Part shown: positions 10,643-52,800 of the stretch, piece after piece | Layout: every line of letters begins with the position of its first letter | How positions within the stretch are numbered: position 1 is the stretch's first letter | From: Eledone cirrhosa | Lineage: Eukaryota | Direction of reading: 5' to 3' | Assembly (NCBI GenBank): GCA_964016885.1 | Contig: OZ024743.1 | Coordinates: forward strand, 11,656,001 to 11,720,000 | DNA: 64,000 nucleotides | Notes under the pieces: generated by a model | What the model was told of the DNA's origin: nothing | What the model saw: the letters and a program-made list of their open reading frames with translations, nothing else | The model's database searches: none | Position numbers and translations under genes: made by a program

Positions 10643-11039
10643 TCCTTTGTCAGTGTTGAACAAACGAGCAACGGTGGTTGCTAGACACTACGGCTTAATA
10701 CGGGATGTTTGTTTACAAACACACCGAGCATTATAATAAATGTTCGGTGAATCCATACGTACATATATATGTGTGCATGTATGTATATATATATACATAC
10801 TACTGTACGTCTGTATACATATATGTATGTACGTGTACATACTTATATTTAAGTAACAGTCGTACTAAGAGTGGGAAATTAAATTTCGTTTCATTTTTTC
10901 CGTTTATATATATATATATATATATAAGTTAGAACAATGAAATAAAAAATCAAGTGATTAGAGATATACTTCATATATATATATATATATATATACAATG
11001 ATATTAAATAAATGGAAACTATATTTATAAAACCATATT

Positions 11040-11100
11040 TATTCTATTATATATATTTCAAGGGTACCAAAACTTTGGTACACTCTCATCAGATAAAATA
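11040..11100 (-). ncRNA. Hammerhead ribozyme (minus arm)
   Basis: Reverse complement: tattttat-CTGATGA-gagtgtaccaaagttttggtaccctt-GAAA-tatata-TA-atagaata. Confidence 0.8.
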
Positions 11101-11229
11101 CAAAGTTTGTTTTATAAATATTGACATAACCAGGAATAGGATCTTAACAGTTCAAGTTATTCCTGGATAGAAAACTTGAACAGTAAGATCTTCTTCCTGG
11201 TTATGTCAATATTTATAAAACAAACTTTG

Positions 11230-11290
11230 TATTTTATCTGATGAGAGCGTACCAAAGTTTTGGTACCCTTGAAATATATATAATAGAATA
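11230..11290 (+). ncRNA. Hammerhead ribozyme (plus arm)
   Basis: tattttat-CTGATGA-gagcgtaccaaagttttggtaccctt-GAAA-tatata-TA-atagaata. Confidence 0.82.
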
Positions 11291-11364
11291 AATATGGTTT
11301 TATAAATATAGTTTCCATTTATTTAATATCATTTAATATCATTTAATATCATGTAATATCATGT

Positions 11365-12423
11365 TGTCTGGCACGTTCGTATAGTACTGAACCGTTTTTT
11401 CGTTCTTTTAGCCCCCCCCCCCCCCCCCAGTGTTGGTCTATCCTTTCACCTATGCTACGAACTGTCTCGCCTATGTATGTTGTTTGTTGTTGTCATGTTT
11501 CTGCAAGTACCCTCTGTACATATGCTATAGACTACGTTTCTAGTTTTACAGTTTATCCGGGGGTTTACTTTGCATATAATACATTTCCTATTAGTACAGT
11601 GGGTTTTCTTAAAAGGGTATGTTTTGCTGATCAGGGATTTTATGGAAGTTCCTGGCTTTTCTACCACCTTAATCTTTAAGTGGGTCTTTCTCAGGACCTT
11701 TCTACACTGGTTAGCTAATTTCCCTCCAGGGGTAGCGTCCACGAACATGACACTCTGGTATCTCTGGTTGTCGTACCATGAGGTGGCTTTCCCTATCTTA
11801 TGTTTAGTCCTATCTAAGCTATTCCATGATTTGCTCCTGTATAATGGGCAAATTCCTTTCATGTCCAGTTCTATGAGGGTCTTATACTTCTCCATGACTC
11901 CTTCGTATACTCTGACTCTGTCTCTTTGGTTGTAGCCAGAGAACTGCATGCGGTTGATGAAGTGTTGGATGTGTCTTTCCATTTCTGTTGGGTTGCACAT
12001 GTGTGACACGTTCTTCATCACTCGTACCAAGTCTGCCATCAGAATATTAAACCTAGCACTACTGGACATTGATGAGTTTTTGAGTATCAGGTATTTGGAG
12101 GCCATGGGTTTAGCGTAGTGTGAGTAGAGAATTTGGGCCTTCTCGTCTATAGTGTTAATCCAGAGTTCCGTGTCTAATACAGGTAGTCTACTGTTAGGGT
12201 GTTTGGAAGGGTAGTCGATAGTTACAGTTATACTCTGGTGTATGGAATTAGCTATCTGCTGGATGCTTTCCATTGTGCTACATTCTAAATCATATTTGTT
12301 AGTACTCTCTTGTGCGGATGTTCTTATTACTATATTGATATCGTCTACGTAACGAGAGTACATGATGAGGTCTATGGAGCTCTCATCAAGGAGATCTTTG
12401 AGTCTCCTTTCCCACCATACCAT
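11365..12423 (-). pseudogene. Penelope-like element RT C-terminus plus start of GIY-YIG endonuclease
   Basis: YSRYVDDI, LPVLDTEL, HYAKPMAS, SGY motifs; CTNRKCIIC..NCKTRNVVY, then after a frameshift TYIGETVRSIGER (~11443-11481). Confidence 0.9.
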
Positions 12424-12603
12424 AAAACCATAAAAAGGTTGGCAATGTCACCAGCTTGCTGACGCCAATGGCTGCTCCCTCATTTTGGGTGTAGATCTTC
12501 TATATATATATAGTGGTATTTTATATGTCACCCTATTGTATACTAAAGCCTTTTTCAAGTTAAGATCTTCTATGGCAATAGAACTATCTCTATTTTTCCT
12601 TAT

Positions 12604-14080: not shown

Positions 14081-14314
14081 TTTATTGATGTTCATACACA
14101 GAACAAAAGCACTACATAAGGTTTCAAGACCCAACATTGAGTATATAAGAGGGATCAAAATTGTGACATCATTTTCAAGGACTTTAAACTCCTTTGTTTA
14201 AGCATCTGAAGATTAGGTCACAATTTTGATCTCTCTTACAATCTAGAGATTTGGTCAATATTGGGTCTTGAAACCTTAGGTAGTGCTCTTGTTCTGTGTA
14301 TGAACATAAATAAA
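14081..14314. mobile_element. Fold-back cassette with hammerhead in right arm (family D)
   Basis: 14081-14167 is inverted relative to ~14217-14314; begins just after (TA)n. Confidence 0.7.
14201..14287 (+). ncRNA. Hammerhead ribozyme with long stem II
   Basis: agcat-CTGAAGA-[57 nt imperfect hairpin]-GAAA-ccttagg-TA-gtgct. Confidence 0.65.
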
Positions 14315-14926
14315 TAGTATATCAGCTTTCATCCTGATTCAGCACTGTTTCCCTTTTTCTTTTTTACACCTACATATATTTCCACACACATACACAGTGC
14401 ACTTGAGCACTGTACACAATCATTTTCATTATTATTGCCCTAGCAGTCAGGATGACCGTACCTTTTTCTGGGCTTTCTTCACAAGTGGCTCTCCAAAGTC
14501 TCCCAACTATTCGGGAATTTTTCCTTGTTTCATTTTTTTTTTGTTACATTCTTTGTTCTTGTTTTTTATATATATAATTTTTTTTTTTACACGCAGAAAT
14601 GCTCATTTGTACTGTCCTGTGCTGTCCTTAATGTTATACTTTATGTCAACCCTTGTGGTTAATAAAGAAAGAATTATTATTATCGAGGCTAACTTTGCCT
14701 TTCATCCTTACGGGGTCGATAGAATATAGTACCAGTCACGCACTGGGGTTGATTTAATCGACTTTCCCCTGCCCCCAAAATTGTTGGTCTTGTGCCTATA
14801 TAAGAAACAATTATTATTATTATTATCATAAGTCAACCAATCATATCATATTATTTGTTGTATTTTCATACACATACACACACACATATATATATATATA
14901 TAATTCTATTATATCGAAATAAATAT

Positions 14927-24904: not shown

Positions 24905-26060
24905 CTGAATAGTATGGTAGAATATTAAGTGTTAAATGTTAATTAAACAGGTACTTTCATGCTTTCGCAATCTTCAGGTCCATATTCTGTGGTGACAGTC
25001 AAGTTTGCAATTTTCAACTGTAATGAGATGGGTAAATTTTGTTCCTTATATACAGTGAAAAGCGGCTACAGAATGCTACATTTTTCAAACTGTATTTCGA
25101 CCAATTGGTGTGTAGTTTCACTGGATTACTGAAGCTGATTGGTTTAGGCGTCATGGTTGGTTGAGCATGTCTAACAACTTCTATTTGGCCCTATTCAAAG
25201 CATCAATTGTTTTTCTATTTTTAGAAATGATGTAAATAGCATTTTCTAGGGTTTTTATATCCCTAAGAATTTGTATTGTTCATTTAGCTTGGGTTGGAAT
25301 TTATCAATAAAATCCTTTTCTTTGATTTTTCTCTTGATTGCACTTGGCCTGTGTAATTTGTAGAATGGAAATATTATAAATATTTTCTGACCACATGTTT
25401 CTAGATGGTTACTAAGGGGTATCTGACGGACATTTGGGTCTCTGATTTGCTGTCGGTGCACCCGTGCACGTTCTGATAGTGCATTTCCAGTTTGACCGAC
25501 ATATAGTTCTTCACAATTCGGGCATTTAATGCAGTAAATTAGATTTCTGCTTTTGCATTTGGGAATATTTTTCAAAATTTCAACCCAAGCTAAATGAACA
25601 ATAATAATTCTTAGGGGTATAAAAACCCTAGAAAATGCTATTTTCATCATTTCTAAAAATAGCAAAACAATTGATGCTTTGAATAGGGCCAAATAGAAGT
25701 CGTTAGACATGCCCAAGCAACCGTGATGCCTAAACCAATCAGCTTCAGTAATCCAGTGAAATACAGTTTGAAAAATGTAGCATTCTGTAGCCGCTTTTCA
25801 CTGTATATAAGGCACAAAATTTACCCATCTCATTCCAGTTGAAAATTGTAAAATTGACTGTCACCACAGAATATGAACCTGAAGATTGCGAAAGCATGAG
25901 ATTACTTGTTCAATTAACACTTAATACTTAATATTCTACCATACTATTTCATTCTAATACCATTATAATTTTAAAGGATTATAAATAAAACGAGTAAATC
26001 AGACAAAGTTAGAATTCCTTTTATTAATATAATCTTCTATACACAATCATACACACCCAT
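24905..26060 (-). mobile_element. 5'-truncated Penelope-like element with inverted terminal repeat
   Basis: GIY-YIG domain (CKSRNLIYCIKCPNCEELYVGQTG..RVHRQQI..FQPKLN, ~25258-25560, minus); ~390 bp arms 24908-25297 and 25577-25950 are inverted; mutated hammerheads at 24945-24982(-) and 25874-25912(+); (TA)n on both flanks. Confidence 0.9.
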
Positions 26061-45444: not shown

Positions 45445-48429
45445 TTGGACAACATTGTGACGGCTACGACGAAATCCATGGAGGCTATGGGTTTGGTACT
45501 AGAAATGAGGAAGGCTCCAGAATCCTGGAATTCTGTGATGCAAATAACCTAACTATCTGTAACACTAACTTCACAAAACGTGACATCACCTGATCACCTA
45601 TAGATCCGGGGAACACACAAGCCAGGTAGATTATATCCTTACCAGAAAACGTGACAGAGTGTCTGTTGTAAACACTAAATCCCTCCCCCATGAAGAATGC
45701 ACCTCCCAACATAGACTGATAATTAGCGACCTCATAGTCAGGACGAGACGTATTCGACAGCAGAAAAGGACTATCCTCAGGAGGAAAATATGGAAGCTAA
45801 AGGACCCCACAGCCAGGAATAAATTTCAAAGCATATTACTTGATGCTTTCGACAGTAAGGAAGAACATTTAGAGTCGGACAATATAGAGGGAGAGTGGGA
45901 ATTTCTGAAAGCAAACCTGCTGTTGGCGACAGACGAAGTCTGTGGCTGGAGCAGGCCTGTAGGCAGGAGGAGAGTAACATGGTGGTGGAACAGTAAGGTG
46001 GAGGGGTCAATTAAGGCCAAAAAGCAGGCTTGGAAAGTATGGCGGGATGGGGGAAGTAGAGAAGACTATCAAGTGGCCAGGAGGGAAGCTAGGAGACAAG
46101 TGTACTTAGCAAGAAGGGAAGCTGAGGAAAGAAAGTTCAAGCATGTTCTACAACGCGATGACCAAAAACGTGAGGTGTTCAGGATTGCTAGGCAATGCAT
46201 CAAGGAAAACCGTGATATTGTCGGGGAGAAGTGTGTACTAAACGACGATGGCACACTTGCCATCACCGACGCTGATAAGAAGGTAGCTTGGAAGTGTCAC
46301 TATGAAAGGCTACTAAATGAGGAGAATAAATGGGAGAAAGACAGTCTCCCCCATATCGACCCAATAGAGGGACCAGCAGTGTTAGTCGAGGGGAGTATAA
46401 TAAGTAAGGCAATCAAGGATATGAAGACGGGTAAGGCGGCTGGGCCTTCGGAAATAGTAGCTGAGATGCTGAAGGCATCTGGCACGGTGGGACACACCAT
46501 GGTCACCCGCATAGTTAACCAAGTCGTACAGAATGGGGTTGTTCCGAAGGACTGGCGTAGCAGCATCATCGTTAACTGTTATAAGGGTAAAGGAGACGCC
46601 CTAGATAGGAGTAACTATAGAGGCATTAAATTAATCGACCAGGTCATGAAGGTCACGGAAAAAGTAATAGCACAACTAATCAGAGAGAGAATTGACCTAG
46701 ATGAAATGCAGTTCGGGTTTGTGTCAGGCAAAAGTACCACAGACGCTCTTTTCATTGTACGACAACTACAGGAGAAGTACCTAGCTAAAGGTAAACCCCT
46801 CTACTTAGCTTTTGTCGACTTGGAGAAAGCCTTCGACAGAGTCCCCCGCTCCATTATCTGGTGGGCTCTTAGAAAACTAGGCGTTGACGAATGGCTTGTG
46901 AGAGCTATACAAGCCATGTATAAAGAAACAGTCAGCAAGGTTAGAATTAACAACGAATATAGTGAAGAGTTTAGCGTAAAAGTTGGCGTCCATCAGGGCT
47001 CTGTTCTCAGCCCCCCTACTATTTATTATTGCCCTTCAGGCTATAACAGAGGAGTTCAAGACCAGCTGCCCATGGGAACTCCTATACGCAGACGACCTGA
47101 CACTCATAGCGGAATCAATGGCCAAGCTAGAGAAGAAATTCCAAACATGGAAGCACGGCCTAGAATCAAAAGGCCTTAAAATTAACCTGGCTAAGACTAA
47201 AGTTCTAGTTTGTAGGAAAGAAAATAAGGCGGCGGTCCCTTCTGGGAAATGGTCGTGCTCGGTGTGTAGGAAAGGCGTAGGTAGAAACTCCATTTTGTGT
47301 CCCAAATGCAAAGTATGGGTGCATAAAAGATGTAGTGGGATCACAGGTAAGCTGACTAAGAACATAGATTTTACATGTGGCCGGTGTTCTGGGGATATAA
47401 GTAGCAGCAAGTGCCCACAAAATACTAGCTCTTTCAACTGCGCAGAGGGTTCTATAGAAATAGTGGACAGCTTCCGTTACCTGGGTGACAAAATCAGCAG
47501 TGGGGGAGGGTGCTCTGAAAATACAGTAGATAGAGTCAGAACTGGATGGAAAAAGTTCAGAGAGCTTATACCACTATTAGCAGCTAAAGGGTTCTCCCTA
47601 AAAATGAAAGGCAGGTTGTACGATGCCTGCATACGAACAGCAATGTTGCATGGCAGTGAGACCTGGGCATTGTGTGCAGAGGATATACGCAGACTAGAGA
47701 GAAACGAAGCTTGCATGCTCCGCTGGATGTGTAATAGTAATATACGTGAACGGCAAAGCATAAACGAACTAAGGAAAAAATTAGAAATAAGAGGGATCAG
47801 ATGTTGTTTACTCGAGAGAAGGCTACGTTGGTATGGTCACGTGATGCGCATGAAGGACGATAGCTGTATAACAAAGTGCAGGGCAATAAAGATAGACGGT
47901 AGCCACGGAATAGGCAGACCCAGAAAAACCTGGGACGAGCTGATAAATTCCGACCTCACACACTTACACCTCACCAAGACAATGTCACTGGACCGAGACC
48001 TTTGGCGGTACTGAGTAATAGAGAAGACCCGCCTTACCTAAATACAAAGTAAAACCTACTACAGTCAGTAGGCATCTCTAACAAAATACACCCCCCGTCC
48101 CACCACCCCCACCCCATCCACACCGCCCCTTTCAATGTAAAGTTATGTTGGTGCCACAACATCCAGGCCGAAACAAATGAGATCGTGTAGGTGTCACGTC
48201 AAAAAAACACACAGTTCACGCTGTAATGTGGCCGTCTAGGCAACACGGTAAAAACCTCCCAGCCCCACACTGTAAATGTGGTTGGTGTTAGGAAGGGCAT
48301 CCAGCTGTAGAAAACCCGCCAGATAGTCCTATGCGAGCAAGATAATCACTCTTGCCTCAAGTGGGAAAACCCCCGTCCAAACCCATGCAAGCGTGGAACA
48401 CGGACATTAAACGTTGATGATGATGATGA

Positions 48430-49176: not shown

Positions 49177-52100
49177 ATCATCATCATCATCATCATCAAC
49201 GTTTAACGTCCGTGTTCCACGCTTGCATGGGTTTGGACGGGGGTAGTCCCACTTGAGGCAAGAGTGATTGTCTTGCTCGCATAGGACTGTCTGGCAGGTT
49301 TTCTACAGTTGGATGCCCTTCCTAACACCAACCACATTTACAGTGTGGGTCTGGGAGGTTTTTACCGTGTTGCCTACACGGCCACATTACAGCGTGGACT
49401 GTGTGTTTTTTTGTCGTGACACCTACACGATCTCATTTGTTTCGGCCTCGATGGCGCGGCACCAACATAACTTTACATAGAACGGGGTGGTGTGGATGGG
49501 GTGGGGGCGGGGGTGGTGGGACGGGGTGTATTTTGTTAGAGATGCCTACTGGCTGGAGTAGGTTTTACTATATATTTAGGTAAGGCGGGTCTTCTCTGTT
49601 ACTGAGTACCGCCAAAGGTCTCGGTCCAGTGACATTGTCTTGGAGAGGTGTAAGTGTGTGATGTCGGAGTTTATCAGCTCGTCCCAGGTTTTTCTAGGTC
49701 TGCCTATTCCGTGACTACCGTCTATCTTTATTGCCCTGCACTTTGTTATACAGCTATCGACTTTCATGCGCATCACGTGTCCATACCAACGTAGCCTTCT
49801 CTCGAGTAAACAACATCTGATCCCTCTTATCTCTAATTTTTTCCTTAGTTCGTTTATGCTTTGCCGTTCACGTATATTACTGTTACACATCCAGCGGAGC
49901 ATGCAAGCTTCGTTCCTCTCTAGTCTGCGTATATCCTCTGCACACAATGCCCAGGTCTCACTGCCATGCAGCATTGATGTTCGTATGCAGGCATCGTACA
50001 ACCTGCCTTTCATTTTTAGTGAGAACCCTTTAGCAGCTAATAGTGGTATAAGCTCTCTGAACTTTTTCCAACCAGTTCTGACTCTAGCTACAGTACTTTC
50101 AGAGCACCCTCCCCCACTGCTGATTTTATCGCCCAGGTAACGGAAGCTGTCCACTATTTCTATAGAACCCTCTGCGCAATTGAAAGAGCTAGTAGTTTGT
50201 GGGCACTTGCTGCTACTTATTGCACCAGAGCACCGGCCACATGTAAAATCTATGTTCTTAGTTAGCTTACCTGTGATCCCACTACATCTTTTATGCACCC
50301 ATACTTTGCATTTAGGACATAAAATGGAGTTTCTACCTACGCCTTTCCTACACACCGAGCACGACCATTTCCCAGAAGGGACCGCCGCCTTGTTTTCTTT
50401 CCTACAAACTAGTACTTTGGTCTTAGCCAGGTTAATTTTAAGTCCTTTTGACTCTAGGCCGTGCTTCCATGTTTGGAATTTCTTCTCTAGCTCGGCCATT
50501 GATTCCGCTATGAGTGTCAGGTCGTCTGCGTATAGGAGTTCCCATGGGCAGCCTGTCTTGAACTCCACTGTTATAGCCTGAAGGGCAATAATAAATAGTA
50601 GTGGGCTGAGAACAGAGCCCTGATGGACGCCAACTTTTACGCTAAACTCTTCACTATATTCGTTGTTAATTCTAACCTTGCTGACTGTTTCTTTATACAT
50701 GGCTTGTATAGCCCTCACAAGCCATTCGTCAACGCCTAGTTTTCTAAGAGCCCACCAGATAATGGAGCGGGGGACTCTGTCGAAGGCTTTCTCCAAGTCG
50801 ACAAAAGCTAAGTAGAGGGGTTTACCTTTAGCTAGGTACTTCTCCTGTAGTTGTCGTACTATGAAAAGAGCGTCTGTGGTACTTTTGCCTGACACAAACC
50901 CGAACTGCATTTCATCTAGGTCAATTCTCTCTCTGATTAGTTGCGCTATTACTTTTTCCGTGACCTTCATGACCTGGTCGATTAATTTAATGCCTCTATA
51001 GTTACTCCTATCTAGGGCGTCTCCTTTACCCTTATAACAGTTAACGATGATGCTGCTATGCCAGTCCTTCGGAACAACCCCATTCTGTACGACTTGGTTA
51101 ACTATGCGGGTGACCATGGTGTGTCCCACCGTGCCAGATGCCTTCAGCATCTCAGCAACTATTTCCGAAGGCCCAGCCGCCTTACCCGTCTTCATATCCT
51201 TGATTGCCTTACTTATTATACTCCCCTCGACTAACACTGCTGGTCCCTCTATTGGGTCGATATGGGGGAGACTGCCTTTCTCCCAATTATTCTCCTCATT
51301 TAGTAGCCTTTCATAGTGACACTTCCAAGCTACCTTCTTATCAGCGTCGGTGATGGCAAGTGTGCCATCGTCGTTTAGTACACACTTCTCCCCGACAATA
51401 TCACGGTTTTCCTTGACGCATTGCCTAGCAATCCTGAACACCTCACGTTTTTGGTCATCGCGTTGTAGAACATGCTTGAACTTTCTTTCCTCAGCTTCCC
51501 TTCTTGCTAAGTACACTTGTCTCCTAGCTTCCCTCCTGGCCACTTGATAGTCCTCTCTACTTCCCCCATCCCGCCATACTTTCCAAGCCTGCTTTTTGGC
51601 CTTAATTGACCCCTCCACCATGTTACTCTCCTCCTGCCTACAGGCCTGCTCCAGCCACAGACTTCGTCTGTCGCCAACAGCAGATTTGCTTTCAGAAATT
51701 CCCACTCTCCCTCTATATTGTCCGACTCTAAATGTTCTTCCTTACTGTCGAAAGCATCAAGTAATATGCTTTGAAATTTATTCCTGGCTGTGGGGTCCTT
51801 TAGCTTCCATATTTTCCTCCTGAGGATAGTCCTCTTCTGTTGTCGAGTACGTCTCGTCCTGACTATGAGGTCGCTAATTATCAGTCTATGTTGGGAGGTG
51901 CATTCTTCATGGGGGAGGGATTTAGTGTTTACAACAGACACTCTGTCACGTCTTCTGGTAAGGATATAATCTACCTGGCTTGTGTGTTCCCCGGATCTAT
52001 AGGTGATCAGGTGATTGTCACGTTTTTTGAAGTTAGTGTTACAGATAGTTAGGTTATTTGCATCACAGAATTCCAGGATTCTGGAGCCTTCCTCATTTCT

Positions 52101-52800
52101 AGTACCAAACCCATAGCCTCCATGGATTTCGTCGTAGCCGTCACAATGTTGTCCAACGTGACCATTTAGGTCGCCTGCGATAATTATATAGTCACTGTCG
52201 GATATTTGGGAGGTAGTTAGCATTAGTGTCTCATAGAATCTGTCTTTTATAGTGCCGGGCAGTCCGGATTGGGGTGCGTACGCAGATATTACTGTCACCG
52301 TAGTTCTATTGAGGACAAGTCGTATTTTAATTATTCTGTCGTTCACTCTATTTACGTCTATTATCTTATCTGCCCACTTTTCTGCTACCATGATTCCTAC
52401 TCCACCCAGCCCATCGTCGTTTCCCACTCAGAAAAGCTTATAACATCGTTTTTTACCCTCAATGAACCTAGCAGATCCACCCCTCCACCTGGTCTCTTGA
52501 ATACAACAAACATCGACCTCCTTACGTTCAAGCATTTCTACAACCTCGTTAGCGCGACCCTTTAGGGTGCCTACATTTATGGTACCAACTCTGAAGTTTT
52601 GGATTGCGTTTGGGGGTTGGGGGCGGTGGGGGGCGGGGGGCGATGGGGTTATGTTAGCCGTCCGCGGTCGAAACAATGAGGAGTGCTCGCATTCTCGTCC
52701 AAGAGGTGAATTTGTCTTTATCTTTGGCATTGTCGCTGAGCGTCCAGATTTTTCTCTCTCTCTCACCTCCACTCTCCAGGATTCCGCAGTCCATCCATCC
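49177..52800 (-). mobile_element. Near full-length RTE-clade LINE (single ORF APE-RT from about ATG 52730), two lesions
   Basis: GTINVGTL..CIQETRW, SAYAPQ, GDLNGHVG, all RT motifs; nonsense TGA at 52428-52430 and short frameshifting deletion near 51620 relative to the plus copy. Confidence 0.95.

Follow-up and report, generated by a model that had tools for sequence, protein, structure and literature searches.

Head-to-head terminal repeats carrying opposed hammerhead motifs in Eledone cirrhosa: likely insertion footprints of a Penelope-like retrotransposon

Results and discussion

A palindrome at positions 10996-11333 of the window (the whole 64,000-nucleotide stretch of the Eledone cirrhosa genome analysed here, contig OZ024743.1, positions 11,656,001 to 11,720,000) is, with good probability, a head-to-head pair of terminal repeats (pLTRs) of a protein-coding Penelope-like retrotransposon (PLE), likely made anew at each insertion by both-strand priming on the element RNA. 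The argument draws on the structure of the cassette itself, the ORF-bearing element to which its arms belong, and the tails, 5' ends and junctions of related copies across the genome.

Structure of the window cassette

The two arms, 10996-11170 on the minus strand and 11171-11333 on the plus strand, are unlike at 5 of 163 compared positions and at one 1-nt gap, and the predicted RNA fold of the cassette has an energy of -230.4 kcal/mol (z = -36), in agreement with the near-perfect palindrome of ~335 bp described in a sequence-only reading of this DNA. The intact hammerhead which that reading placed on each strand was likewise recovered. A descriptor search identified type I cores starting at 11238 (plus) and 11092 (minus), with predicted cuts after 11282, the position given beforehand for the plus strand, and after 11048. 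The descriptor matched eight times in the 64-kb window, whereas 40 block shuffles gave 0.05 matches on average and never more than one. Hammerheads were absent from the 150 best of the 232 Rfam matches, these being below gathering scores and mostly microsatellite-driven miRNA matches. The hammerhead core is intact with a stem III of only 2 bp around a palindromic loop, making it a candidate ribozyme of a form that the account in PMC4209133 expects to need dimers. The features of the cassette and its flanks are as follows.

10976-10995, no strand: (TA)n microsatellite bordering the cassette on the left; the window-cassette family (family 1) usually inserts into such repeats
10996-11170, minus: left arm, a pLTR that starts at the 5' hotspot, is complete to its untailed end and adjoins the (TA)n repeat
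11040-11100, minus: type I hammerhead of the left arm, with 8-bp stem I, long stem II and 2-bp palindromic stem III
11127-11170, minus: short stem-loop with which the pLTR begins; arms end and join at its outer edge, the hotspot
11171-11333, plus: right arm, a pLTR without its first 10 nt; the tail is absent in the window copy
11230-11290, plus: type I hammerhead of the right arm, predicted cut after 11282
11334-11363, plus: three 10-nt repeats at the right junction, identical in all three paralogues
11364-12447, minus: fragment of an older, different Penelope-like RT/endonuclease ORF (no Pfam match), putatively Neptune-like, which hosts the cassette insertion

At its right end the untailed window copy joins the older ORF fragment via the three 10-nt repeats, which we infer to have arisen by slippage over sequence common to the target and the element end. 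Two near-identical paralogues with equal flanks and centre were found at C4:11.50 Mb and C6:12.91 Mb, and all three were counted as one insertion because these flanks and this centre are common to them. The left arm of the window copy carries three linked variants common to both arms of locus L012 and the right arm is of the major type, which points to two templates or later conversion rather than to a copied hairpin.

Arms belong to an ORF-bearing element

Judged by sequence, both arms are terminal repeats of a Penelope-like retrotransposon that encodes a protein and has Hydra-clade motifs. Exact matches to the stem II motif number 2,149 in the 3.0-Gb genome, and its reversed control has none. 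With a centre-free query, several family-1 copies were found to extend upstream into a common spacer, and 24/30 loci picked by this spacer have Penelope-type ORF homology nearby. The family-1 arm is located 3' of an RT-endonuclease ORF past a 1.1 kb spacer and, when followed by a tail, 5' of the ORF start, as at L269 where a pLTR and tail (91.8% to the family reference) are separated by 43 nt from the ORF ATG. A sister family (family 2) encodes a 742-aa ORF in the layout pLTR, tail, ORF, spacer, pLTR in several copies. The Penelope connection proposed for the cassette is thus confirmed, as the arms continue into an ORF-bearing element, and the earlier statement that there is no ORF holds for the cassette itself but not for the element of which its arms are part. 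A DNA search with the 3' part of the arm alone gave no matches, probably because common words are skipped.

The hammerhead in the pLTR is of type I and sense to the ORF. An ORF antisense to the hammerhead was considered at L080 and rejected, since mapping indicated sense orientation at the 3' pLTR, the 5' copy being the inverted one. Two ORFs were compared with Pfam and neither had an RT or GIY-YIG match, for which reason RT and endonuclease were assigned by motifs read against PMC8557442. The element proteins have DKT, a CxCx5C linker, and a terminal CxxC with CxH at the endonuclease end. These motifs, together with a canonical hammerhead and (TA)n targets, are shared with the C-terminal EN+ PLEs of the Hydra clade as that source describes them, and an alternative clade label, Nematis, was given up on the basis of its Hydra section. 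The elements are placed provisionally in the Hydra clade by these motifs, and they differ from its description in having RWR rather than RWK and a length of about 3.7-4 kb, including a spacer of 1.1-1.5 kb, as against 'generally <3 kb' (PMC8557442). The test for target-site duplications encountered insertion ends lying in (TA)n, a difficulty likewise noted for other PLE clades in the same source.

Tails, 5' ends and shared variants

Two centre-blind sets of loci were chosen by hammerhead pattern alone. Set A (n = 29) comprised 17 head-to-head pairs, 11 single copies and one unclassified locus, and set B (n = 24) comprised 12 head-to-head pairs, four single and seven long copies and one unclassified locus. 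Duplicated loci were taken out before counting (6/30 in set B, 11/35 in family 2, and 10/90 in the collection that gave the partly tail-selected pairs below). No two junction 28-mers were alike among the pairs of either set (17/17 and 12/12 distinct); the uniformity apparent in a first search arose because its query contained the centre. Some of the copies scored as single have, on inspection, a tiny inverted tail stub (L235, L241).

In 27 of the 29 centre-blind pairs one arm is tailed and the other untailed (p = 8e-7 against independent choice at 0.5). The same arrangement was observed in 34/39 pairs of a partly tail-selected family-1 set and in 18/18 pairs of family 2, one of whose untailed arms is interrupted. 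The window copy is an exception because both of its sides are without a tail.

Arm 5' ends are concentrated at a hotspot. Among 80 family-1 arms, 26 start within -6 to +3 of it and 23 more within +4 to +20, positions that were taken from BLAST ends and are imprecise to within a few bases close to the centre of the palindrome. Family-2 arms start at the same ACTA motif in 11/22 other independent loci, counted by eye, and no terminal hairpin is apparent there, so that the start of the RNA is a better explanation than stalling at a structure. Drosophila Penelope has been reported to have an internal promoter with an initiator (PMC2377424). Inspection by eye for an extra cap-derived G at the 5' ends was mostly ambiguous. 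None of the 80 family-1 arms starts at positions 116-130, where the hammerhead cut would place the junction, only 29 partner arms being free to do so, and none of the 18 family-2 pairs starts at the cut. The 5' stem-loop of the family-1 pLTR (positions 0-45; e.g. L012, L100, L212, L224) has paired changes between subfamilies, attributable either to a selected RNA structure or to DNA quasi-palindrome correction.

Arms of one locus share variants in 29 instances, as compared to a mean of 9.7 and a maximum of 20 in 5,000 shuffled pairings, and have 52 discordant cells versus 86.4 in shuffled pairs. Sharing above the shuffled level together with this many discordant cells indicates templates that are related but not always identical. 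The within-locus sharing fits one template copied twice, and fits snap-back synthesis as well.

Proposed insertion mechanism

The mechanism that we favour is modelled on the Poseidon element of the green anole, an in vitro system from a different clade than the window family. According to PMC11167929, the Poseidon protein cleaves and extends both target strands in vitro, its RT uses two internal start sites bounding the tail, the ORF start is required in the RNA, hammerhead cleavage is dispensable and a dimer is predicted. By analogy, the octopus element protein would bind near the ORF start and nick each strand of a target that is (TA)n or AT-rich. One strand would then be extended from the start site at the tail end and the other from the start site at the pLTR end, both cDNAs heading for the RNA 5' end, probably a transcription start in the upstream pLTR. 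The commonest products would be two short overlapping copies, whose free cDNA 3' ends could be joined by end-joining or microhomology to give the mirror; the hammerheads would be passengers in the pLTR. A stub lacking sequence downstream of the ~90-nt tail probably gives rise to no further copies. In the family-1 fold-back of L224/L225 (G000:C1:50855726-50855949) we observed TTAGGG telomeric repeats where one arm turns into the other, which suggests that free DNA ends were acted on by telomerase or captured the repeats while being joined; such repeats at a junction are as expected of free DNA ends.

The within-locus concordance keeps snap-back synthesis in contention as a rival, although we consider it unlikely. 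A single cDNA, begun at the tail and carried through to the 5' end of the RNA, would fold on itself and prime its own second strand, which would halt at the pLTR end; priming would be single and each insertion would acquire a fresh junction. This likewise predicts one tailed and one untailed arm, and arms within a locus do share variants above chance, those of L013 and L100 having several otherwise rare variants in common with 0-1 differences. It is harder to reconcile with the 52 discordant cells and with the window arms, which differ at three linked, shared-derived sites. The commonest junction would require a 1-nt loop, the tailed stubs of a few nucleotides at L235 and L241 stand beside a full untailed arm, and extension of both strands was observed in vitro in the Poseidon work (PMC11167929).

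Junctions and the question of a mobile hairpin

Both-strand priming also has to account for junctions that recur. One exact centre is identical at 41 loci. It lies on a CCWGG microhomology where two cDNA ends could anneal, occurs in several subfamily haplotypes (22 rows scored, from 24 loci), and has both possible middle bases in a ratio of 10:3 relative to the tail (13 tail-identified loci, p = 0.09). Rarer junctions are common to L025/L026 and to L004/L011. A junction of its own in every copy, the outcome that the sequence-only reading had set against its proposal of a mobile hairpin, was therefore found in both centre-blind sets but not across the 41 loci.

That proposal, a MITE-like hairpin moving as a unit, was not supported: junctions are distinct in the centre-blind sets, ends are asymmetric, inverted arms in family 2 are 0 to 3.4 kb apart, and there is an autonomous ORF. 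The uniform interior and symmetric termini by which MITEs are recognised were not found. Two versions of whole-hairpin copying may be considered for the recurrent junctions, both improbable in our view. A subset such as the 41 same-centre loci could derive from master palindromes that are transcribed outward from pLTR promoters meeting at the centre and recopied whole by the reverse transcriptase of the family, in effect a non-coding double-hammerhead hairpin retroelement. In the other version the cassettes would be a non-autonomous double-ribozyme hairpin, with a small number of master loci supplying transcripts that re-insert intact. The 41 identical centres, the 10:3 orientation skew (13 loci, p = 0.09) and the two other locus pairs with common junctions are as such a unit would predict; against it, all junctions are distinct in the centre-blind samples and the 41-locus centre spans different subfamily haplotypes (22 rows from 24 loci). 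Computed folding also argues against the unit, as read-through RNA is predicted to sequester the hammerhead, and no hyper-edited arms were detected among 29 matches to an A-to-G probe in a narrow test.

The folding calculation gave stem II a pair probability of about 1e-15 in the full palindrome versus 0.998 in a lone arm. In read-through RNA the antisense arm is made first, and the transcript would fold into a rod and not into a ribozyme. The suggestion that transcripts either self-cleave or collapse into double-stranded RNA thus resolves, for read-through RNA and on this model, to collapse. Ambisense viroid-like RNAs, to which the cassette had been likened, are circular RNAs with ribozymes that can fold in both polarities; the predicted fold of the cassette is a rod that would destroy the ribozyme. 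The 29 matches to the A-to-G probe, which addresses ADAR hyper-editing, comprised 24 with the forced change only and five with one more; the test is narrow because one given A must be edited and all non-A positions must be intact.

An assembly or library fold-back artefact is very improbable: short-read depth over the centre is much below that over the arms and the mirror at L028 takes in flanks in addition to arms, but three paralogues share a centre yet differ by point changes, arms are unlike each other, mirrors stop at element ends, the tail is asymmetric, and the centre bin is covered by reads and contigs. L028 (G000:C28:89027649-89030894) is the only tail/tail pair seen, its mirror reaching into the flanking microsatellite; this palindrome may have formed secondarily or may reflect a fold-back in the assembly.

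Other cassettes and elements in the window and beyond

Two further cassettes are present in the window.

2559-2758, minus: tailed arm of cassette 2 (sister family, family 2), cut short just upstream of the hammerhead core
2754-2948, plus: untailed arm of cassette 2, starting at the family-2 5' hotspot, with the hammerhead core at 2842
14081-14375, no strand: cassette 3 (unrelated, older family), with a degenerate untailed minus arm and a plus arm carrying a long-stem-II hammerhead and a tail

Cassette 2, originally placed at 2646-2945, is real but larger, as the tail of its left arm reaches to about 2559, and its arm start points differ. The stem II covariation reported between cassettes 1 and 2 was observed directly: at one pair both bases changed, from G-C to A-U, and at another A-U became G-U. 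The double hammerhead proposed at 14081-14314 was retained for the plus arm of cassette 3 only, which has the canonical core. The minus arm is degenerate (core UUGAAAA, 8-nt stem II deletion), and a tail at about 14315-14375 lies beyond the end proposed. The arms of this cassette are ~80% alike. The left-arm core UUGAAAA (14160-14175, minus) formally has the U3-A8 pair described for Schistosoma PLE hammerheads (PMC4209133), which may be chance, the arm being 20% diverged.

Four more type I hammerhead matches belong to other repeat families (2265, 23608 and 10606 on the plus strand, 43736 on the minus strand), those at 2265 and 23608 being near-identical. An inverted repeat of ~370 nt around a GIY-YIG fragment at 24926-25930 is another Penelope-like inverted insertion, and two inverted, nearly complete LINE-type RT/endonuclease frames (45584-48014, plus; 49576-52427, minus) lie amid long (TA)-rich microsatellites. 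Outside the window, a repeated unit at L148:3304-4578 and L149:3923-5197 (G000:C11, 23.62-23.66 Mb) places a family-1 element beside an uninterrupted 425-aa frame whose beginning resembles that of a membrane protein or a secreted one; copies of the element, four in all, are spaced 12-16 kb apart.

Comparison with known elements

The architecture is already known, inverted pLTRs, one-sided tails and opposite-strand hammerhead pairs having been described in PMC3846280, PMC4209133 and PMC8557442. Closest in layout are Pen2a and Pen3a of Adineta vaga (PMC3846280; overview in PMC8557442), for which these accounts describe an inverted 5'-truncated pLTR beside a direct one, a tail at one end, a 5' palindrome and solo pLTRs. 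In contrast to Pen2a/Pen3a as described in PMC3846280, the ORF is usually absent here, so that each arm consists of pLTR alone; the tail measures ~90 nt as against 30-40 nt, and there are thousands of copies. The inverted 5'-truncated copy and one-sided tail typical of EN+ PLEs are present in the family, the window copy itself being untailed.

In Schistosoma PLEs each strand can carry a minimal hammerhead, the two lying 100-700 bp from one another and having a long stem II and short palindromic stem III, and these dual hammerheads were attributed to probable truncated PLEs in an account whose passages on them carry no analysis of junctions or tail pairing (PMC4209133). Poseidon, as reported in PMC11167929, is alike in its two RT start sites bounding the tail, both-strand extension and AT-rich targets, but is described as having no difference in start site between strands, whereas here one start is paired with the other in 27/29. 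Non-LTR retrozymes (bioRxiv 10.64898/2026.07.22.740005) are similarly non-coding and pLTR-related with a type I hammerhead; they are described as head-to-tail tandem units, an arrangement not found in the present cassettes, which are head-to-head with variable junctions. Among the publications searched, in which subscription journals were thinly covered and most matches were at listing level, we found none quantifying the pairing of tailed and untailed arms.

The cassette is ordinary in kind and of use as a mechanistic footprint. Its many related stubs are an in vivo record of RT start and stop sites for a class of elements with an insertion cycle that is still being worked out in the accounts of PMC8557442 and PMC11167929, and the 5' hotspot predicts a transcription start. 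That a tailed arm is almost always paired with an untailed one suggests joint use, in a second PLE clade, of the two start sites known from in vitro work, each serving one target strand.
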